Assembly (NCBI GenBank): GCA_905205665.1
Contig: CAJLEF010000002.1
Coordinates: 85,050-149,049, forward strand
Reading direction: 5' to 3'
Origin: an uncultured Bacillota bacterium
Lineage (GTDB): Bacteria; Bacillota_I; Bacilli_A; RF39; UBA660
DNA: 64,000 nucleotides
A model generated the notes under the pieces. It was not told the DNA's origin and made no database searches. It saw nothing but the letters and a program-made list of their open reading frames with translations. Below, one piece after another: positions 5,639 through 40,212 of the stretch. Each line of letters starts with the position of its first letter. Position 1 is the first letter of the stretch. The position numbers and the translations under genes are program-made.

Positions 5639-6859
5639 TTAATTATTAATATTTAAATGATACGGATTTTCTTTACTACCATCACCTAAAATATTTGTCT
5701 TTTTAACAAGAGTGATAACCGGTCTAAAAAACAAATTGGTATCTTCTTGAATATCTTTTATTAAAGAACCATTTGACATAACCGCGATGTAGTTTGTTTT
5801 ACCATTTTCTTTTTTATTAGGTGTCATAGTCCACCAAGAACTTTGTAAGTTAGGAAGATATAAATAATAATCCTTATTTTCATTCGTAGTTGCTCCGGCA
5901 AACATGACTTCATCCGCGGTTAAAGTAGCAATTTTTTTAGATAAAGAAGTACCATTACAAGCATTAGTAGGATTTGCTTCTTGAAATAAACGACTATTAG
6001 AAAGATATTCTATTTTGCCATTTTCATCTAAGTTAACGCTGTTATCATAACAATATCTCGTGCTAGCAATATAACTATCATTATCCATTAAAAGTGTATT
6101 ATAAAACTTTTCTAATTCGGTATTTAAATTACTTGTCACAAAATCATTATTACCAAGAGCACTTGTTACATTAAAAGGTATCATTGCTTCAGTAATACTA
6201 TTTAAAACTAATTTAACTGTTTTATCTTCATTTATTTTAACAATGCGCCACATTTGATTGGCAAACATTACATAATTATTTTCAACCTTACCGCGAAAAT
6301 AATAAACATCCCCATCTTGTTCTGCTTTTCTTATTAAACCATTTTCTTCTTGACTTTCTAAAATGGTATTATTTTGTAAAATAACACTGGCAAAACTATT
6401 ATCAATTTCTTCAATATCTGTTTCAATTTCAAACGTTAAAGCATTTTTTAAAGGATTTGAAATATCCATAGTATATCGATGTGTTTCTTGTGGTTCAATT
6501 TCAATACGACTACCTAATAATGTTTTAGAAAATGAAGAAGAAAAACTTTCAAATACTTGATTGTTAGATTTCAAAGTATAACTTGCTTCATCGGCATTTA
6601 AAACATTAGTTAATTTTACATAATAATACTTAGTATCATCAGAATGATTTGTCACTGAAAATTCTATTTTTTCAGTCTCATTATTTACTTTTATTTTGTT
6701 GCCATTTATATAATTTATAGAAAGTTCTTCTGTTACTAGAGTAAGAGCCTCTCCATAAGTTTGATTTAATCTATATTTACGATATTCAGAAAAAACAAAT
6801 AAACAAGCAAGGAAGATGATAAAAATTATAACCAAAGCGATTATATACTTTTTTTTCAT
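5639..6859 (-). CDS. exported/membrane-anchored paralog-family protein P1 (divergent member)
   Basis: N-terminal TM. It shares the family motifs YYFRGKVENNYVMFANQMWRIVKIN, LTADEVMFAG, SWWTMTPN and FRPVITL...GDGSKENPYHL with P2-P5. Alternative starts lie at 6865 and 6868. Confidence 0.7.
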   Translation of the reverse strand: MKKKYIIALVIIFIIFLACLFVFSEYRKYRLNQTYGEALTLVTEELSINYINGNKIKVNNETEKIEFSVTNHSDDTKYYYVKLTNVLNADEASYTLKSNNQVFESFSSSFSKTLLGSRIEIEPQETHRYTMDISNPLKNALTFEIETDIEEIDNSFASVILQNNTILESQEENGLIRKAEQDGDVYYFRGKVENNYVMFANQMWRIVKINEDKTVKLVLNSITEAMIPFNVTSALGNNDFVTSNLNTELEKFYNTLLMDNDSYIASTRYCYDNSVNLDENGKIEYLSNSRLFQEANPTNACNGTSLSKKIATLTADEVMFAGATTNENKDYYLYLPNLQSSWWTMTPNKKENGKTNYIAVMSNGSLIKDIQEDTNLFFRPVITLVKKTNILGDGSKENPYHLNINN

Positions 6860-6896
6860 GGCCATCAACCCTTCTTATAATATAAGTATATTAATT

Positions 6897-6912
6897 TGAC
6901 AAAGATATGTCA
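6897..6912. promoter_or_regulatory. palindrome TGACA-AAGATA-TGTCA overlapping the predicted -35 of the P1 promoter (candidate operator)
   Basis: Inverted repeat seen directly in the sequence. On the minus strand, TTGTCA (6897-6902), a 17-nt spacer and TATAAG (6874-6879) form a plausible promoter. Apart from a one-nucleotide difference in spacer length (N6 here, N5 there), the TGACAAA...ATATGTCA core is the same as in the palindrome at 9803-9823. Confidence 0.35.
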
Positions 6913-6954
6913 ATTTATTTTGAAGGACTTGACAATTTTTTTAAGCCTTCCATC

Positions 6955-8307
6955 CTAAGCAACAACATAGGGATCGGTCATGGTACCACTTCCTGTAATA
7001 GTCACATCAGAGCGAATATTGATTACTGGTGTTAAAGAATAATTACTTCCAGAAGTATAGGGATCATCAAATCTTCCAACAGCATCAATGATAAATACAT
7101 AAATTCCCCAATAAGTTTTATCAAATGGATTATAACCTCCTACAGGTGTCATGGTCCAAATATTTTTGCCAGTAGTTAGAAAGCATTTATAACAACTTTT
7201 TTGATAATTATATCCACCATTAAAATCACCACCACCATAGCCAGATAACATTGCTTCATCTGCACTTATTAAACCAACAGGATAAGTTAGTGCCTTATTA
7301 CCAACGTTTGATGATGTAATCGTATAAAAATCATTAGTATTTTCACATGACAAACTTGGTGTTCCATGTGAAATTCTTAAATACCCATTATAATAAGTAG
7401 TAATCGTACCTGTTCCAACACCAGACTGCAAATTCAGGGTTGAACGATCACCACAAAAGCCTGTTTCTTTATCTAAATAATTGATATAAGAATTAAGGTT
7501 ATTTTTAAAAAAATTATCATTATTCTGTTTTATAACTGATGAAATCAGCAAACCATGTTGTTTATTTTCTTCATACATATACCCAACATACATATTATTA
7601 CTATAATTATTAAAAAAAGAACTTGACATTGCTTGCCTATCATCAGATATTTCCCCATTCTCGTGGGCACTTGTTCCATCATAGATCATTCTTATGGAGC
7701 CATTACTATTAATACGAACAATTCGCCAATAAAAACCTGCGAATTTAACATAATTATTTTCTACCGAACCTCTGTAATAATAAGTTGGCTTTCCATCATA
7801 GTCTGTTGTTTCAAAAATACCCTTTTCGTGTGATTCACATGATGAATCATCACAAGCTGACTTTGTAAAATCTGGAGTATAACTATTCACTTCAATATTT
7901 CCTAAGGTGGTTTTTACTGTTTTGGCTGTTTTATTAAAATATAAAGTACATTTAGTTCTTGTATTTGTAGTCGCACTATAATTATGATAATCTCCGATAA
8001 ATTTCCAACCAGCATTATCCCAAGTTGGAACAACGCCATTATTACAATTTGATTTTGTCTCATCTAAAGTGTAACCTGTATTTTGAAGAGGCATATTTCT
8101 TGATATAACGCCATCTATATAATAAGCAAAATAAATATCTCCTGGATCTTCTACTGTTCCATTGATAACATCAAAATCTTTCCTTTCTTCATAGAAAGCA
8201 TAACTTTGATAAAAAATTACATAACCCGTTATAATGCCAATCATAAAAACAAATACGATTATGGCTATTTTTTTAGGCTTTTTTATTTTAAATTTTTCTA
8301 ATTTCAT
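6955..8307 (-). CDS. exported paralog-family protein P2
   Basis: 450 aa. N-terminal TM/signal with SYA|FYEE. Blocks are near-identical to P3/P4/P5, for example PTYYYRGSVENNYVKFAGFYWRI(V/I)RINSNGSIRMIYDGTSAH. It starts 12 nt after the P3 stop, behind GGTGGTGA. Confidence 0.8.
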   Translation of the reverse strand: MKLEKFKIKKPKKIAIIVFVFMIGIITGYVIFYQSYAFYEERKDFDVINGTVEDPGDIYFAYYIDGVISRNMPLQNTGYTLDETKSNCNNGVVPTWDNAGWKFIGDYHNYSATTNTRTKCTLYFNKTAKTVKTTLGNIEVNSYTPDFTKSACDDSSCESHEKGIFETTDYDGKPTYYYRGSVENNYVKFAGFYWRIVRINSNGSIRMIYDGTSAHENGEISDDRQAMSSSFFNNYSNNMYVGYMYEENKQHGLLISSVIKQNNDNFFKNNLNSYINYLDKETGFCGDRSTLNLQSGVGTGTITTYYNGYLRISHGTPSLSCENTNDFYTITSSNVGNKALTYPVGLISADEAMLSGYGGGDFNGGYNYQKSCYKCFLTTGKNIWTMTPVGGYNPFDKTYWGIYVFIIDAVGRFDDPYTSGSNYSLTPVINIRSDVTITGSGTMTDPYVVA

Positions 8308-8319
8308 CTTTTCACCACC

Positions 8320-9669
8320 TTAACTAACAACATAAGGATCAGTCATAGTGCCACTTCCTGTAATAGTGACATCAGAACGAATATTGATTACTGGACGAAG
8401 ACCATACGTGCCGTAAGTATAATTATCATCGATAAGACCAGAACCACCCACAGAAAACAAAAGTGCAAGCCAGTCTGTAAAACCAAATGGATTATATCCC
8501 CCAGCTGGGGTTATAGTACAGAATCCACTTCCAGTTACTAAATAACTGCTGTTATTTGATTTCATTCTAGTATAATAGCCATCAAATACTCCTCCAGCAT
8601 GACCTGCAAGTACAACTTCATCGACTGTGATTAAACCTGTGGGGTAACTTAATTTTTTGTTACCACTTGACGCACTTGCTACGGTGTAATAATCATTGGC
8701 GTTTTCACAAGTAAGTGTTGGAGTACTTTCTGCTACTCTTAAATACCCCTTATTATAAGTAATCACGATTCCCGTTCCGACTCCACTTTGCCGATTTAAA
8801 TTAGAACGGTCGCCACAGAAACCAGCATTCGTATCTAATTTTGAAGCATAACTAGAAAGTTTATCGGTATAAAACTTATCTACATTTGTTTTAATAATTG
8901 AAGATGTTCCCGTTCCATTAGCTTCACCTGATGTGTACATATAACCTACATACATATTGTTGTTATAATTCGGATTAAATTGACTTGTGCCATATTGTCT
9001 ATCTTCTGATGCTTCACCATTACTATGAGCACTTGTTCCATCATATATCATTCTAATAGAACCGTTGCTATTGATACGAATAATTCGCCAATAAAAGCCC
9101 GCAAATTTCACATAATTATTTTCTACCGAACCTCGGTAGTAATAAGTAGGATTGCCATCTGTATCTGTTGTTTCATAAATCCCCTTTTCGTGTGATTCAC
9201 ATGTTTCATCATCACAAGCTGATTTGGTGAAATCTGGAGTATAATTATTTACTTCTATATTTCCTAAGACAGTTGAAACTGTTTTGGAAGTTTTATTAAA
9301 ATACAAAGTACATTTGGTTCTTGTGTTTGTTGTGGCACTATAACTTGTATAATCTGTTACTCCTTGCCACGTACTATGATTCCAATTTATTTTTACTCCA
9401 TTCGTACAATTAGATTTAGTTTCATCCAAAGTATAACCTGTATTTTGCTTAGGCATTTCTCTTGATATTTCTCCATCAATATAATACGCAAAATAAATAT
9501 CTCCTGGGTCTTCTACCGTTCCATTTATGACATCAAAATTTTTATTTTCCTCATAAAAAGCATAACTTCTACCAAATAAAAAATATCCCAGTAAAAGGCC
9601 AATGCCTATTAAAAATAGGTTTATACTTGTTTTCTTTATATTCTTAACTTTAAATTTTTCTAATTTCAT
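8320..9669 (-). CDS. exported paralog-family protein P3
   Basis: 449 aa counted from MKLEKFKV (ATG 9667-9669 behind GGTGAG). This start is homologous to the P2 start. The track ORF extends to 9771 only because no stop codon intervenes. Confidence 0.8.
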   Translation of the reverse strand: MKLEKFKVKNIKKTSINLFLIGIGLLLGYFLFGRSYAFYEENKNFDVINGTVEDPGDIYFAYYIDGEISREMPKQNTGYTLDETKSNCTNGVKINWNHSTWQGVTDYTSYSATTNTRTKCTLYFNKTSKTVSTVLGNIEVNNYTPDFTKSACDDETCESHEKGIYETTDTDGNPTYYYRGSVENNYVKFAGFYWRIIRINSNGSIRMIYDGTSAHSNGEASEDRQYGTSQFNPNYNNNMYVGYMYTSGEANGTGTSSIIKTNVDKFYTDKLSSYASKLDTNAGFCGDRSNLNRQSGVGTGIVITYNKGYLRVAESTPTLTCENANDYYTVASASSGNKKLSYPTGLITVDEVVLAGHAGGVFDGYYTRMKSNNSSYLVTGSGFCTITPAGGYNPFGFTDWLALLFSVGGSGLIDDNYTYGTYGLRPVINIRSDVTITGSGTMTDPYVVS

Positions 9670-9732
9670 TTTCTCACCACTATTACTATGCCCATATTTT
9701 TCTATTCTAACACGACTTATTATGTCATATTT

Positions 9733-9761
9733 ATGATAACATAGTTTATTTTTCAAGACAA
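9733..9761 (-). promoter_or_regulatory. predicted sigma-A-type promoter of P3-P2
   Basis: Minus strand: TTGTCT, a 17-nt spacer, then TGtTATCAT (extended -10), about 65 nt upstream of the P3 start. Confidence 0.4.
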
Positions 9762-9802
9762 TAGTTAGCATGACATTTCATACCGTGTTTTTTCATACAA
9801 TA

Positions 9803-9823
9803 CTATGACAAAATATGTCATAG
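9803..9823. promoter_or_regulatory. 21-bp palindrome CTATGACA-AAATA-TGTCATAG (candidate operator in the P3 / XRE divergent region)
   Basis: Perfect 8-bp arms seen directly. It lies between a TACAAT -10-like box (9796-9801) and the RBS of the XRE gene. Additional ATGACAT half-sites occur at 9721-9729 and 9770-9776. Confidence 0.45.
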
Positions 9824-12886: not shown

Positions 12887-13999
12887 TTATTCCCCTTTGG
12901 TAAATTCTTGGGTTTGGGCGATATTTTCTAAAACAACCACAAAAACCTCTACCACCATTGTACTATCATTTACTTCTTTTTTCAAAACTTTTTTCGTCAA
13001 AATCTTCTCTTTATCTTTTAAAGTACTTTCTACTTTTGAAGTAGCTTTTAAAGTAGCTTCCTCTAAGGCTTCTTCTTCACTATAAATTTTTGCTTGTTTT
13101 TCTTCTTCGTTTTGTACAACAAAATATAACTTTTGACCAAATAAAGAAAACAAAAGATGTTTTTCTTCCGAAAAATTAGTTAATCTATTTTTAAAGATGG
13201 GCGTGTCATTTAATTTAAAATTCCATCTTTTTTTGCCTGTTTTTGTTGCTTCTTCATAGGTTAAAGGAATACTCACAGTTACTTTGTACCAAACTTCAGC
13301 ATAAATGCTTCCCTTAGCGCAAGTGTATCCCACTTCTTCTTCATTATTTTTAATAATACCACTTATTAAAATATCTCCTTTTTTAACCGCGTCATTTTGC
13401 TTTACTAAGGACATCCCCTTTTCATATACCATTTCTTTAATTATCCCATCTTTTAAAGCAACAAGATGACATAATTTTTCTTCATGATTAGGGTCATTTA
13501 ATTTTCTTTCTTCAACCCTAACAATATAATTCATACCTTTTATTTCTATTTCTAACCATTCTAATTTATCAGGAAAAGAATTTAAAATATCTTCTTTGAT
13601 TTCTTCTAACTCATTATAGTTTTTTTTCCAGGTATTTTTTTTAATTCCTCTTTCTGCGAGTTCTATTTCTAAAAAATCTCTGATTTCTTTACTTTCATGA
13701 ATAACATTCACTGAAACCATGACATGAGAAAGTAAAAATAACAAAATAAGTCCTATTAAAGAAGAAAAAAGAAAAATACGATTTTGATATATCTTTTCTT
13801 TTACTCTTGAAAGACCTATATTTTTTTCATCTAAAATTTTAACAAACCACATTTTTTTGATTTTTTCTTTATCTTGCCTATCTATTTTGACATAGCAAAC
13901 ATCTTTTTCTTCTTTAATTTCATAAAGTGTTATTTTCTCTTTAAATGTCCGTATTAAAAAGCGGTTTTTATCTCGTAATTTTAATTTAAGCCATATCAT
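12887..13999 (-). CDS. yqfD: sporulation protein YqfD-like
   Basis: 370 aa with a central TM segment. Its position directly after a YqfC/YabP-like gene and upstream of ybeY-era matches the Bacillus yqfC-yqfD context. Confidence 0.65.
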   Translation of the reverse strand: MIWLKLKLRDKNRFLIRTFKEKITLYEIKEEKDVCYVKIDRQDKEKIKKMWFVKILDEKNIGLSRVKEKIYQNRIFLFSSLIGLILLFLLSHVMVSVNVIHESKEIRDFLEIELAERGIKKNTWKKNYNELEEIKEDILNSFPDKLEWLEIEIKGMNYIVRVEERKLNDPNHEEKLCHLVALKDGIIKEMVYEKGMSLVKQNDAVKKGDILISGIIKNNEEEVGYTCAKGSIYAEVWYKVTVSIPLTYEEATKTGKKRWNFKLNDTPIFKNRLTNFSEEKHLLFSLFGQKLYFVVQNEEEKQAKIYSEEEALEEATLKATSKVESTLKDKEKILTKKVLKKEVNDSTMVVEVFVVVLENIAQTQEFTKGE

Positions 14000-36435: not shown

Positions 36436-37794
36436 TCAATTTAGTTCATATGGGTCATTTTTTGTACCGCTTCCTTTGATGTTAACATCAGAGCTGGCAT
36501 TAATAACAGGGCGAAGACCATAAGCGACACTCACATTACCATCTTCAACACTACTATAGTAGGAAGGCGTAACAACAAAAGCAAGAGCTATCCAATCGAC
36601 TCCGCCAAAATAATTATATCCTCCTACTGATGTCATTGTCCAAAAATAATCACCAGACGTCAAGTAAACTCTATTATTTTTTTTCATATGACTATAAGTG
36701 CCATCAAATAAGCCACCTGCATAACCTGCTAGCAGAACTTCGTCCACTGTTATTAAACCAATCGGATAAGTTAAAGACTTATTGCCACTTGAAGCGGTAG
36801 ATACTGTATAATAATCACCTTCATTTTCACAAGCTAATGTCGGAGCACTTGCTTCTACTCTTAAATATCCTTTATTGTAAGTAGTAACTGTTCCTGTTCC
36901 AACACCGCTTTGATTGTTTAAATTAGAACGGTCGCCACAGAAACCAGCATTCGTATCTAATTTTGAAGCATAACTTGAAAGTTTATCCGTATAGAACTTA
37001 TCATTGGCTGTTTTAATTGTCGAAGAAGTGCTTGTACCATGATCTTCTCCAGATGTATACATATATCCCATATACATATTGTCATTATTGTTTATATTAA
37101 ATTGACTTGTCCCATATTGTCTGTCTGTTGATGACTCACCATTTTGATGAGCACTCGTACCATCATAAATCATTCTGATAGAACCATTACTGTTGATTCG
37201 TATAATACGCCAAAAATAACCTGCAAATTTGACATAGTTGTTTTCCACTGAACCACGGTAGTAATATGTAGGTTTAGCGTCTGTGTCTGTTGTTTCATAA
37301 ATACCTTTTTCATGGGATTCACATGATGAATCATCACAGGCTGACTTTGTAAAATCTGGAGTATATGTGTTAACTTCAATATTTCCTAAAGCCGTTTTTA
37401 CTGTTTTAGCTGTTTTATTAAAATATAAAGTACATTTTGTTCTTGTATTTGTTGTAGCACTATAATTATGATAATCACCAATGAATTTCCAACCAGCATT
37501 ATCCCAAGTTGGAACTACTCCATTATTACAGTTTGATTTTGTTTCATCTAAAGTGTAGCCTGTGTTTTGAAGAGGCATATTTCTTGATATAACGCCATCT
37601 ATATAATAAGCAAAATAGATATCTCCCGGATCTTCTACGGTTCCATTTATGACATCAAAATCTTTTTTTTCTTCATACAAAGCATAGGATTTATAAAACA
37701 AATAACTACTTATAGAAAGTAAAAGAAATCCTATGACCAATATGACATAAGATTTTCTTTTATAATTATTTTCTTTATATTTTTTTAATTCCAT
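36436..37794 (-). CDS. exported paralog-family protein P4
   Basis: 452 aa from MELKKYK (ATG 37792-37794 behind GGTGAAGATA). This start is homologous to the P2/P3 starts. The 5' half is about 90-95% identical in DNA to P5 and P2. Confidence 0.8.
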   Translation of the reverse strand: MELKKYKENNYKRKSYVILVIGFLLLSISSYLFYKSYALYEEKKDFDVINGTVEDPGDIYFAYYIDGVISRNMPLQNTGYTLDETKSNCNNGVVPTWDNAGWKFIGDYHNYSATTNTRTKCTLYFNKTAKTVKTALGNIEVNTYTPDFTKSACDDSSCESHEKGIYETTDTDAKPTYYYRGSVENNYVKFAGYFWRIIRINSNGSIRMIYDGTSAHQNGESSTDRQYGTSQFNINNNDNMYMGYMYTSGEDHGTSTSSTIKTANDKFYTDKLSSYASKLDTNAGFCGDRSNLNNQSGVGTGTVTTYNKGYLRVEASAPTLACENEGDYYTVSTASSGNKSLTYPIGLITVDEVLLAGYAGGLFDGTYSHMKKNNRVYLTSGDYFWTMTSVGGYNYFGGVDWIALAFVVTPSYYSSVEDGNVSVAYGLRPVINASSDVNIKGSGTKNDPYELN

Positions 37795-37820
37795 TATCTT
37801 CACCATAGTTTCCTATGATG

Positions 37821-37853
37821 ATTATAACAGATACCCCCCCCCCCGACTGTCAA
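37821..37853 (-). promoter_or_regulatory. P4 promoter: TTGACA - GTC-G11-TATCTGT (21-nt spacer) - TATAAT with TGn extension
   Basis: Read directly on the minus strand. The -10 is at 37821-37826 and the -35 at 37848-37853. About 27 nt separate the -10 from the ATG. Confidence 0.55.
37834..37844 (-). repeat. homopolymeric tract, C11 on plus strand = G11 on the coding strand
   Basis: Counted directly: ataCCCCCCCCCCCgac. Confidence 0.95.
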
Positions 37854-37854
37854 G

Positions 37855-38762
37855 ACGGTTTGGAGAGTTTATAATATCTTTATACCACTTTGACAGAGGG
37901 TATATAATATAAATAATTTTAGAAAGGAGTAATTTTATGGCTAAAAAATATGATAATAATTTTAAATCTATGATTGTTAATTTAATTTGTAATGAAAAAC
38001 ATTCTACTATTAAAACTGCTGAACAATTTGAGATTCCTCTCAAGACTGTTGAAAAATGGATTACTGCTTACAACAAAAATAATAGATGTTTTGATTCCGA
38101 TTATAAAACTCAAAGTCAAATTATCGATGATTTAAAAAAACAAATTTCTAGATTAGAAAAAGATAATGAAATACTAAAAAAAACGATTACTTTATTAGCA
38201 AAAAAGGAATAAAGAGGTTTGAAAGTGCTGAACTATTAGTTTCAAAATATAATTATAAGCTTAATGAAGTCTATAATGCTTTAAATATTAATAAATCTTC
38301 TTATTTGTATTGGAAATGTAAAGGGAAAAATAATCTAAATAAGTTAGCTACTTTTTGTCAGCAAATTGTTTCTGTTTATGCTGATTCAAATGGAGTTTAT
38401 GGTGCACCCAAAATAGCTGCTGTTTTAAAGACAAAAGGCATTACTTGTTCCACTTCTAATGTTTCCAAAATCATACATAGATTGGGCATTAGAAGTATTG
38501 TTTCTAAGAAATTTCCTCATAGAAAAAGTAATTTAACAGACAAAGAAAAATCCTTAATTATTAATTTAATTAAAGATTTAGAAATTAACAAAATCAATCA
38601 AGTTTGGACTACTGATATTACTTATATTCAAACTATCAACGAAGGCACTTTTTATCTGATTTCTTTCTTTGACTACTTTTCCAAAAAAGTTGTTGCATGG
38701 GGTTTATTTTCTGACCAAAAAACAGATAAAATTTTAAAGGTTTTAGATGATGCTATTGAAAA
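37855..38762 (+). mobile_element. IS3-family insertion sequence remnant (left part only; 3' end deleted)
   Basis: OrfA plus a -1 frame OrfB N-terminal portion with an A_AAA_AAG slippery site. OrfB stops after the first catalytic D (WTTDITY) region. No inverted repeats were identifiable, so the boundaries are approximate. Confidence 0.75.
37937..38212 (+). CDS. IS3-family transposase OrfA (HTH)
   Basis: 91 aa. The HTH (KTAEQFEIPLKTVEKWI) is followed by a leucine-zipper-like tail (LKKQISRLEKDNEILKK), typical of IS3/IS150 OrfA. Confidence 0.8.
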   Translation: MAKKYDNNFKSMIVNLICNEKHSTIKTAEQFEIPLKTVEKWITAYNKNNRCFDSDYKTQSQIIDDLKKQISRLEKDNEILKKTITLLAKKE

Positions 38763-38801: not shown

Positions 38802-40154
38802 TCAATTAACAACATATGGGTCTGTCATAGTGCCGGTTCCATTAATGGTGACATTAGATTTTAAATTAATAACTGGGCGCAGACCAATCTCAACACCAGG
38901 GCTACGGTCGACAATTTTACCAGTGAAGCTCATAGTGAACACAAACGTAGTTGTATCAAGATATCCAAACGGATTATAGAACCCGGCAGGTGTCATAGTC
39001 CAAAATACATTTTCTGAAATCAAATAACTTCCATTATTTGATTTTTGATGGCTATATTCGCCATCAAAGACACCACCGGCATGACCAGCAAGCATTGTTT
39101 CATCAACAGTGATTAAACCAATCGGGTAGTCTAATTTTTTGTTACCACTTGAAGCGCTGGTTACTGTATAATAATCACTGGCATTTTCACAGGCAAGGGT
39201 TGGTGCACTTTCTTCTACCCTTAAGTATCCTTTATTGTAGGTAATAACGGTTCCTGTTCCAACTCCACTTTGTTTATTTAAATTAGAACGGTCCCCACAG
39301 AAACCAGCATTCGTATCTAATTTTGAAGCGTAACTTGAAAGTTTAGCGGTATAGAACTTATCCACATTTGTTTTAATTGTTGAAGATGTTCCTGTACCAT
39401 GGGCCTCACCCGATGTGTACATATAGCCTACATACATGTTGTTCTTATTATTTGGATTAAATTGACTTGTGCCATATTGTCTAACCGCTGATAATTCGCC
39501 ATTCGCGTGAGCACTCGTTCCATCATAAATCATTCTAATCGAACCATTACCGTTAATACGAATAATTCGCCAATAGAATCCTGCAAACTTAACATAATTG
39601 TTTTCTACCGAACCTCTGTAATAATAAGTAGGCTTTCCATCATTGTCTGTTGTTTCATAAATACCCTTTTCGTGAGATTCACATGAAGAATCATCACAAG
39701 CAGACTTTGTAAAATCTGGAGTATAACTATTCACTTCAATATTTCCTAAAGCCGTTTTTACTGTTTTAGCTGTTTTATTAAAATATAAAGTACATTTGGT
39801 TCTTGTATTTGTGGTCGCACTATAATTATGATAATCACCAATAAATTTCCAACCAGCATTATCCCAAGTTGGAACAACGCCATTATTACAGTTTGATTTT
39901 GTTTCATCTAAAGTGTAGCCTGTGTTTTGAAGAGGCATATTTCTTGATATAACGCCATCTATATAATAAGCAAAATATATATCACCAGGATCTTCTACGG
40001 TTCCATTTATGACATCAAAGTCTTTCCTTTCTTCATATAAAGCATAGGATTTATAAAATAAATAACTGCTTATGGAAAGTAAAAGAAATCCTATGACTAA
40101 TACGACATAAGATTTTCTTTTATAATTATTGTCTTTATATTTTTTTAATTCCAT
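38802..40154 (-). CDS. exported paralog-family protein P5
   Basis: 450 aa from MELKKYK (ATG 40152-40154). The family blocks are as in P2-P4. Confidence 0.8.
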   Translation of the reverse strand: MELKKYKDNNYKRKSYVVLVIGFLLLSISSYLFYKSYALYEERKDFDVINGTVEDPGDIYFAYYIDGVISRNMPLQNTGYTLDETKSNCNNGVVPTWDNAGWKFIGDYHNYSATTNTRTKCTLYFNKTAKTVKTALGNIEVNSYTPDFTKSACDDSSCESHEKGIYETTDNDGKPTYYYRGSVENNYVKFAGFYWRIIRINGNGSIRMIYDGTSAHANGELSAVRQYGTSQFNPNNKNNMYVGYMYTSGEAHGTGTSSTIKTNVDKFYTAKLSSYASKLDTNAGFCGDRSNLNKQSGVGTGTVITYNKGYLRVEESAPTLACENASDYYTVTSASSGNKKLDYPIGLITVDETMLAGHAGGVFDGEYSHQKSNNGSYLISENVFWTMTPAGFYNPFGYLDTTTFVFTMSFTGKIVDRSPGVEIGLRPVINLKSNVTINGTGTMTDPYVVN

Positions 40155-40180
40155 TATCTTCACCATAGTCTCCTATGATG

Positions 40181-40212
40181 ATTATAACAGATACCCCCCC
40201 CCCGACTGTCAA
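40181..40212 (-). promoter_or_regulatory. P5 promoter: TTGACA - GTC-G10-TATCTGT (20-nt spacer) - TATAAT with TGn extension; A9 tract upstream
   Basis: Read directly. The -10 is at 40181-40186 and the -35 at 40207-40212. It is a duplicate of the P4 promoter apart from tract length. An A9 run (T9 at 40223-40231 on the plus strand) lies in the UP-element position. Confidence 0.55.
40194..40203 (-). repeat. homopolymeric tract, C10 on plus strand = G10 on the coding strand
   Basis: Counted directly: ataCCCCCCCCCCgac. Confidence 0.95.

Follow-up and report, generated by a model that had tools for sequence, protein, structure and literature searches.

What are three tandem genes for uncharacterized proteins doing among the core genes of an uncultured gut bacterium? 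The genes, which we call Locus A, encode the paralogs P3, P2 and P1 and lie at positions 5639 to 9669 of a 64,000-nucleotide stretch of DNA (the window) on contig CAJLEF010000002.1, from an uncultured Bacillota bacterium of the RF39 lineage. An earlier note on this DNA had described them as an uncharacterized family of exported paralogs and had pointed to a likeness to modules of the DUF6273 type. Our analysis leads us to think that P1 to P3 are probably diversified, switchable extracellular binding proteins, whether adhesins, receptor binders or lectin-like proteins. The evidence for this reading comes from a C-terminal module related to DUF6273, a hypervariable hairpin within that module, the mosaic structure and changing copy number of the paralogs, and the association of family genes with a divergent regulator gene or with poly-G tracts.

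Locus A encodes three members of a paralog family

An open reading frame (ORF) listing and inspection of the sequence placed P3, P2 and P1 as three consecutive minus-strand ORFs, as the earlier note had it. A tblastn search of the window with the three proteins bore out their paralogy and recovered two additional full-length copies, P4 and P5, at a second site (Locus B). P2 and P3 share 67% identity (E = 0), and P4 and P5 are 67 to 76% identical to P2 and P3. P1 matches the other paralogs in its C-terminal two-thirds only, at 24 to 27% identity and E values of 1e-12 to 1e-18; the similarity of its C-terminal module (C-module) to that of P2 and P3 is far beyond chance, and P1 retains its place as the divergent member. 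It also has the promoter-like region of its own that had been noted, TTGACA-17-TATACT, with 11 of 12 consensus matches.

The start of P2 lies exactly 12 nt past the stop codon of P3 and is preceded by a GGTGGTG ribosome-binding site. This arrangement fits the P3-P2 operon proposed earlier, and in a related strain five copies follow one another at distances of 12 to 13 nt. The longest P3 ORF reaches position 9771, and we placed the start at 9669 (MKLEKFK), behind a GGTGAG ribosome-binding site, as in the paralogs. In gene-caller records P3 appears as a 483-amino-acid (aa) protein, P0001 (8320 to 9771), with an extension of 34 codons. The DNA of this 34-codon stretch is kept in other strains (L080 and L003) and holds promoter-like and operator-like sites; it is probably promoter DNA and not translated. 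The P1 ORF opens at 6868, and its likely start is the ATG at 6859, which gives a protein of 406 aa, in agreement with the homolog P0121.

The C-module is best described as a divergent DUF6273 relative

The likeness to DUF6273 had been no more than a suggestion, and both profile and structure comparisons lent it substance. P0134, which is 51% identical to P1, scored 29.2 bits against DUF6273 (PF19789; gathering threshold, 23.5 bits) over aa 222 to 374, within the C-module, and a second P1 homolog, P0136, scored 23.4 bits. Across the family, DUF6273 was matched by 10 of 103 P1-type members (E ≤ 0.01) and by 12 of 58 distant representatives, with a best E value of 7.5e-13. The AlphaFold model of P1 (pLDDT 92.5; that of P3, with a pLDDT of 61.6, is weak) comprises a transmembrane (TM) helix at aa 4 to 32, a nine-stranded beta-sandwich at aa 40 to 150 and, beyond a short helix, an alpha/beta module at aa 175 to 403; the DUF6273-like module is placed at aa ~170 to 403. 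When this model was compared by Foldseek with the viral structures in BFVD, the top matches were gut-phage DUF6273 proteins, four of the top seven being named so, at E values of 1.3e-6 to 1.2e-4, a probability of 1.0 and 205 to 252 aligned columns.

Together, these results indicate that the C-module, at about 290 aa, is best described as a divergent, enlarged relative of DUF6273. The description of the family as uncharacterized also stood: besides the blank Pfam and NCBIfam searches considered below, sequence and profile searches of the Protein Data Bank (PDB) returned no related solved structure, and the names among database relatives are limited to “hypothetical protein.”

DUF6273 resembles a C-type lectin, and variable regions of diversity-generating retroelements (DGRs) lie at its C terminus in receptor-binding proteins of gut phages (PMC10743442; bioRxiv 10.1101/2024.10.15.618418). 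Its known members include such DGR targets of gut phages (“tentaclins” and Mtd-like proteins), and it also forms the N-terminal domain, ahead of an M64 peptidase, of ThomasA, a cell-wall-anchored IgA protease of Thomasclavelia ramosa (PMC12402451). The family shares with DUF6273 the P1 homologs that pass the Pfam threshold, the match of the P1 model to the phage models, an apparently extracellular ligand-binding context and a variable segment at the C-terminal end of the domain. It differs in that P1 to P5 themselves remain below the threshold, in the length of the module against a profile of 172 positions, in an additional hairpin, YY[YF]RGxVENNYVxF, at the N-terminal end of the module and in an insertion of ~45 aa in P2 to P5. 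Unlike the phage DUF6273 proteins, the family shows diversity without a DGR signature, and its genes are cellular and chromosomal.

A hypervariable hairpin lies at the end of the module

Among 53 close relatives of P3, column entropy rises from ~0.3 bits over most of the protein to 2.1 bits in a stretch at aa ~391 to 424, between the (W/C)T(M/I)TP and RPVIN motifs. This stretch is a beta-hairpin in both the P3 and the P1 model. Within the DUF6273-like module it occupies the C-terminal end, where the published DGR variable regions are also found, and the DNA that borders it is sharply conserved.

In a Nei-Gojobori analysis of 113 pairs, dN/dS was 0.60 in the hairpin, with 35% of the pairs above 1, compared with 0.14 in the core and 0.17 in the N-domain. 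The difference came from nonsynonymous change: dN was 0.49 in the hairpin and 0.10 in the core, while dS was 0.86 and 0.74, respectively. Because dS is like that of the core and only dN is raised, we attribute the diversity of the hairpin to diversifying or relaxed selection on the protein rather than to a local mutator.

Paralogs are mosaic and vary in copy number

Comparisons between paralogs suggested exchange of segments. At the DNA level, P5 and P2 are 93 to 96% identical across the N-domain and 51 to 70% identical in the C-half, and P5 and P4 are 91 to 98% identical over the first 150 codons only. Between P3 and its ortholog at L082, dS climbs from 0.04 in the hairpin to 0.47 in the core and 1.01 in the N-domain. 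These patterns indicate that the paralogs are mosaics produced by recombination.

The syntenic locus of a near-identical strain (L080) contains five tandem P3-type genes, compared with two here, in the order recO, XRE gene, array, P1, a gene for a 192-aa protein, an HTH/TM gene and ezrA. Variation in the family arises from paralogy, mosaic recombination and copy-number change. One copy, at L001 4547 to 5897, is broken into two overlapping ORFs of 247 and 233 aa behind a G11 promoter tract and is probably a frameshifted pseudogene.

A divergent XRE gene accompanies Locus A

A gene for a small XRE-family regulator is divergent from P3. In the loci that we fetched, such a divergent XRE gene lies directly upstream of 25 of 69 array-leading family genes, and the linkage extends to distant relatives of 35 to 40% identity, where the regulator is a double-HTH protein. 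The region between P3 and the XRE gene contains a perfect palindrome, CTATGACATATTTTGTCATAG (9803 to 9823), a further TATGACAT site (9722 to 9729), and ATGTCAT and ATGACAT half-sites on either side of the P3 promoter-like site. The window has 18 TATGACAW sites, where 6.2 are expected, and three of them fall within these ~100 bp. This intergenic region is almost invariant in L080 and L003, and its half-sites are still present in the more distant L015.

Poly-G tracts precede P4, P5 and many relatives

Homopolymer contingency loci include the promoters of Neisseria meningitidis porA and opc (poly-G/C) and of Mycoplasma hyorhinis vlp (poly-A) and the poly-G genes of Campylobacter jejuni; by comparison with these, poly-G tracts in a genome of 29% GC are a classical signature of slipped-strand phase variation. 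The window contains only two G/C homopolymers of 8 or more nucleotides, a G11 and a G10 tract. Both are on the gene strand and embedded in the context CTTGACAGTC-G(n)-TATCTGTTATAAT, with G11 lying 28 nt upstream of the P4 ORF and G10 at the same distance from that of P5. The related loci, which amount to 1.05 Mb, gave us 33 tracts of at least eight G residues, with lengths of 10 (25 tracts), 11 (five), 9 (two) and 13 (one). As many as 29 of the 33 are found where a family gene starts, on its sense strand, and most of these are flanked by a TTGAC[ATG] box on one side and an extended −10 box on the other. For P4, P5 and 27 relatives, the tract is either part of the promoter spacer or within the 5′ coding sequence. 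Three of the remaining four tracts have the same promoter-like context, two of them before other exported proteins and one at a contig end. This promoter design ahead of other exported proteins is seen at L014 3050 to 4809 and L011 4393 to 5710, and one of the proteins has a P3-type N-domain with a different C-terminal part.

In one metagenome-assembled genome (MAG), family genes have the tract within their 5′ coding region, following ATG AAG CAA AAA TAC GTT (L007 9776 to 9785, L011 1851 to 1860 and L021 96 to 105). As read from the sequence, a tract of G9 or G12 is needed to keep the frame, whereas the G10 of the assemblies would be a translational OFF state. An identical P4 protein is encoded behind G11 in the window and behind G10 in two other samples (L090 and L091). 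We consider that the tracts probably indicate slipped-strand phase variation of P4, P5 and their relatives. A literature search on RF39 and phase variation returned nothing relevant.

The resemblance to established contingency loci covers the tracts of G9 to G13 in a 29% GC genome, their placement, precisely in the −35/−10 spacer or else within the 5′ coding region, in putative surface-protein paralogs, the differences in tract length between copies and strains, and the multigene, recombining nature of the family. The present case differs in that the tracts are found at P4, P5 and relatives, while Locus A has the XRE regulator, and in the assembled promoter spacing of 20 to 21 nt.

Some contigs break at the tract (L017 and L090) or just inside the gene start (L089). 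In one sample (L091 1 to 80, compared with 37845 to 37870 of the window), the same P4 gene and G tract are preceded by unrelated sequence that lacks the TTGACA box; the difference could be due to recombination at the tract or to an assembly join. A poly-A tract at the start of P1 was also considered as a switch and was rejected, as it is interrupted in a 97%-identical ortholog.

Motifs and predicted export

The conserved motifs listed in the earlier note were all present in a family alignment (A1), with two corrections: P3 reads FCTITP in place of WTMTP, and the motif at the C-terminal end should read L-(R/T)-P-V-I-N. Paired cysteines are C88/C120, C152/C157 and C285/C321, the last pair being invariant across 113 family sequences, P1-type members included. 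At 8506 to 8520, in P3 and its L080 ortholog, Cys replaces the conserved Trp of WTMTP, and this residue is an unpaired seventh cysteine.

The N-terminal TM or signal segment described earlier was matched by hydrophobic helices that AlphaFold modeled in P3 (aa 11 to 33) and P1 (aa 4 to 32). In P2 to P5, a lysine-rich stretch is followed by a hydrophobic helix of 17 to 20 residues and then by S-Y-A-[FL]-Y-E-E, and these proteins are likely cleaved after SYA. P1-type proteins have no SYA-type motif and probably remain membrane anchored through the N-terminal helix. A reading of P1 as a lipoprotein (FLAC) was rejected because the sole cysteine of the helix is not conserved in the P1-type alignment. 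The invariant Cys pair, the N-terminal hydrophobic helices and the co-occurrence of the C-module with extracellular domains are signs of an extracellular location, and on such features export of P1 to P5 is predicted.

The family is large and cellular

A profile built from P1 to P5 matched 7457 clusters at 50% identity (E ≤ 1e-3) and 1718 at E ≤ 1e-30. The C-module (profile positions ~152 to 449) is repeated up to 11 times in giant proteins and co-occurs with Flg_new, Big_3, fn3, GH3 and similar extracellular domains. A genome scan located more than 594 family loci in bacterial genomes. The hosts are almost all uncultured gut MAGs from humans, chickens, rabbits and mice, labeled “Bacilli,” “Tenericutes,” “Mycoplasma sp. 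CAG:776/956,” Ca. Ventrenecus or Ca. Caccenecus. A single MAG carries 7 to 10 copies, often in tandems of 2 to 5, and with so many clusters and copies in small genomes, the family is among the largest of the lineage.

Neighboring genes and feature coordinates

The GC content of the window is ~29%, and nearly all of its genes are on the minus strand. Locus A is surrounded by the core genes recO, era, ybeY and ezrA, and this synteny is conserved. The two minus-strand genes downstream of P1 (4194 to 4940 and 4967 to 5554) are syntenic in a related strain; one encodes an HTH_3 protein with a TM segment and a Cys-rich extracellular domain, and the other encodes a 195-aa TM protein with an acidic tail. 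We found no tie between these two genes and the family except adjacency. A full-length homolog of YqfD, a stage IV sporulation protein, is encoded at 12887 to 13999 on the minus strand (Pfam E value, 5e-60), in a lineage that is often labeled “Tenericutes” or “Mycoplasma.” An IS3-family remnant lies on the plus strand between P4 and P5 (37937 to 38799). It consists of an OrfA-like HTH_Tnp_1 ORF and an OrfB with HTH_21 and a truncated rve core, the latter terminating right at the P5 stop codon. The features of the two loci are collected in Table 1.

Table 1. Coordinates of Locus A, its sister copies and associated features in the 64,000-nucleotide window
Feature	Position	Strand	Basis or comment
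P3 coding sequence	8320-9669	-	449 aa + stop; start matches paralogs, GGTGAG ribosome-binding site
P2 coding sequence	6955-8307	-	450 aa + stop; 12 nt downstream of P3
P1 coding sequence	5639-6859	-	406 aa + stop; divergent paralog
P3 predicted signal/anchor segment, ends SYA↓FYEE	9559-9669 (aa 1-37)	-	Alignment and model
P2 predicted signal/anchor segment	8197-8307	-	Equivalent of P3 segment
P3 C-terminal DUF6273-related module	8323-9189 (aa ~161-449)	-	Alignment, profile, structure
P2 DUF6273-related module	6958-7827	-	Equivalent of P3 module
P1 DUF6273-like module	5642-6352	-	Equivalent of P3 module
P3 hypervariable hairpin, between (W/C)T(M/I)TP and RPVIN	8398-8505 (aa 389-424)	-	Entropy, dN/dS
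P2 hypervariable hairpin	7033-7143	-	Equivalent of P3 hairpin
XRE-family HTH regulator, 69 aa, divergent from P3	9833-10042	+	Pfam HTH_3, E 3e-13
Operator-like cluster	9722-9823		Site counts and conservation in related loci
P3 promoter-like site, TTGTCT-17-TATCAT with TG extension	9733-9761	-	Consensus match
P1 promoter-like site, TTGACA-17-TATACT, 11/12 matches	6885-6913	-	In 95-nt gap after P2
P4 (Locus B), sister paralog	36436-37806	-	tblastn against window
P5 (Locus B), sister paralog	38802-40166	-	tblastn against window
G11 tract upstream of P4, between TTGACA and TGTTATAAT	37834-37844	-	Candidate phase-variation tract
G10 tract upstream of P5, same promoter context (TTGACA, TGTTATAAT)	40194-40203	-	Candidate phase-variation tract

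Points against the proposed reading, and alternative explanations

Several results weigh against the reading of P1 to P3 as switchable extracellular binders. No Pfam or NCBIfam family model recognizes P1 to P5, and against PF19789 itself, P1 to P3 gave nothing at E ≤ 0.1 and P1 and P5 gave nothing at E ≤ 10. In the PDB, the weak P3 model reached CEL-I, MBP-A, mincle and the C-domain of Lcl at E values of ~1.5 to 2.5 and probabilities of ≤0.15, and the matches of the P1 model were generic beta-sandwiches on the N-domain, with no significant solved C-type lectin. We saw no LPXTG, SLH or similar wall-anchoring motif in the proteins, so cleaved P2 to P5 may just be secreted. With regard to switching, Locus A has no poly-G tract, and the assembled tracts elsewhere separate TTGACA from TATAAT by 20 to 21 nt, a spacing that does not correspond to an ON state. 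A length of exactly G10 is shared by most tracts, and hypermutability is thus deduced from the assemblies and not observed within a population. Lastly, promoter-like matches are no commoner here than in shuffled sequence, so the P3 and P1 sites are to be taken as placements, not as proofs.

Two alternatives take their cue from the phage relatives of the module. If the proteins were DGR targets, their hairpin would be a variable region into which a reverse transcriptase, encoded elsewhere in the genome, copies a template repeat. DUF6273 is a known target domain of this kind in gut phages, and the position of the hypervariable stretch and its conserved borders would fit. As in the DGR-diversified C-type lectin proteins Mtd of a Bordetella phage and TvpA of Treponema, the variable residues occupy a C-terminal hairpin or loop on a conserved scaffold, and receptor binding is the presumed role. 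However, no template repeat (about 90% identical, with adenine differences) occurs in the window, where only the paralogs match the 3′ regions; no reverse transcriptase is found among the Pfam-annotated neighbors at the syntenic 21-kb locus L080; and the adenine-specific codon pattern is absent, third codon positions varying as elsewhere. The family also differs from Mtd and TvpA in that its fold match to solved C-type lectins is not significant. Given that the window has no template repeat, that the codon-position signature is missing and that dS is not raised, we rejected DGR hypermutation, and with the almost identical hairpins of orthologs in different strains also speaking against it, a DGR at a distant site is highly improbable. 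The second alternative takes the proteins for receptor binders of phage, either domesticated or resident, or for components of a mobile element. It could appeal to the phage DUF6273 proteins as best structural matches and to the IS3 remnant between P4 and P5. It has to contend with the conserved core-gene setting of Locus A, with the absence of phage structural genes nearby and with the distribution of the family, for which 2.9 million viral contigs yielded just five loci, against the more than 594 in bacterial genomes. On the core-gene synteny and the rarity in viral contigs, we regard the family as cellular and not as prophage cargo; a prophage origin was rejected, and a phage or mobile-element role in general seems very improbable.

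The other alternatives accept an exported cellular protein and give it a different task. P2 to P5 could be SipW-processed subunits of the TasA/camelysin type that assemble by donor-strand exchange into fibers with lectin heads, with anchored P1 as the base. The sequence SYAFYEE resembles the SipW-type GTYAYFxD, and 43 of 120 family representatives have a signal-end motif of this class, [STAG][YFW]A.[FYWL], at the end of their hydrophobic segment, compared with a background of 1.6%. Moreover, some relatives with the same C-module appear to have a true SipW-type, TasA/camelysin-type signal: P0260 matches TIGR04088 (23.2 bits; cutoff, 19) and Peptidase_M73 at aa 2 to 75, and P0376 matches Peptidase_M73 at aa 20 to 92. 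Neither model matches the N termini of P2 to P4 or full-length P1 to P3 and P5, however, and hhalign aligned A1 with P0376 only in columns 144 to 449, the C-module, leaving the N-domain not alignable to the TasA-like region. At ~90 aa, the N-domain is also much smaller than TasA, and a search of the window and ~1 Mb of related loci for a signal peptidase gene was negative, although the crude regular expression used makes this a weak test. A TasA-like N-domain in P2 to P5 is thus not supported, only the signal-end motif resembling the SipW type; since P2 to P5 miss the models and their N-domain cannot be aligned, we keep cleavage as likely and consider a TasA-like assembly unlikely. Alternatively, the extracellular module may be a sensor or an enzyme (FGE-like or a peptidase accessory) whose signal is reported by the XRE protein. 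C-type-lectin-like folds do include enzymes such as FGE, and XRE genes are tightly linked to the family. The position of DUF6273 ahead of the M64 peptidase of ThomasA would also be in line with such a role (PMC12402451). Yet the cytoplasmic tail has just ~10 to 15 residues and no signaling domain, the most variable part is a surface hairpin, unlike a catalytic site, and the many paralogs per genome with the proposed poly-G switching fit surface variation better, which makes a sensor or enzyme quite unlikely.

A model for Locus A and its sister copies

Our preferred reading remains that of diversified, switchable extracellular binders. It starts from the paralogy, the domain relationship, the hypervariability with its selection pattern, the mosaicism, the copy-number variation and the XRE and poly-G associations, all of which are observed; from these we infer export and cleavage, a binding function with its ligand, XRE repression and ON/OFF switching. 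A Sec-type N-terminal hydrophobic segment would export P1 to P5; it would be cleaved at SYA↓F/LYEE in P2 to P5 and kept as a membrane anchor in P1. The small disulfide-bonded beta-sandwich may serve as a stalk, and the binding surface of the C-module would include the beta-hairpin just ahead of the closing RPVIN strand. The lineage would maintain many paralogs with differing hairpins under relaxed or diversifying selection, with segments swapped between paralogs by recombination and arrays growing or shrinking by tandem duplication and deletion. At Locus A, the divergent XRE protein is proposed to act as a repressor through the TATGACAT operators, and transcription of P3-P2 probably reads through into P1, which may use its own promoter as well. 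Copies of the P4 and P5 type would instead be flipped on and off as the poly-G tract of their promoter spacer undergoes slipped-strand changes. Overall, a gut commensal would possess a set of variable, switchable surface binding specificities.

What is newly described here is a hypervariable hairpin without a DGR signature, mosaicism and copy-number change among its paralogs, and two regulatory styles, XRE-associated arrays and poly-G tracts in promoter or coding sequence. More tentatively, we suggest that the family may represent an undescribed contingency system of uncultured gut Bacilli, in which dozens of recombining lectin-like binders have their hairpins varied by paralog exchange and selection, and individual copies are either switched by poly-G tracts or held by XRE regulators. 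If so, it would give these commensals antigenic and adhesive variation on a par with that known from Mycoplasma, Neisseria or Campylobacter. It would also mean that the portion of the DUF6273 scaffold which DGRs vary in phages is open to diversification by a wholly different genetic mechanism. Uncultured Bacilli with small genomes are common in human and animal guts, and their encounters with hosts, phages and other microbes are almost unexplored. If our reading is correct, this family would be the main variable surface or adhesion system of the lineage and would offer concrete proteins for studies of binding and of immune recognition, for example, by IgA.

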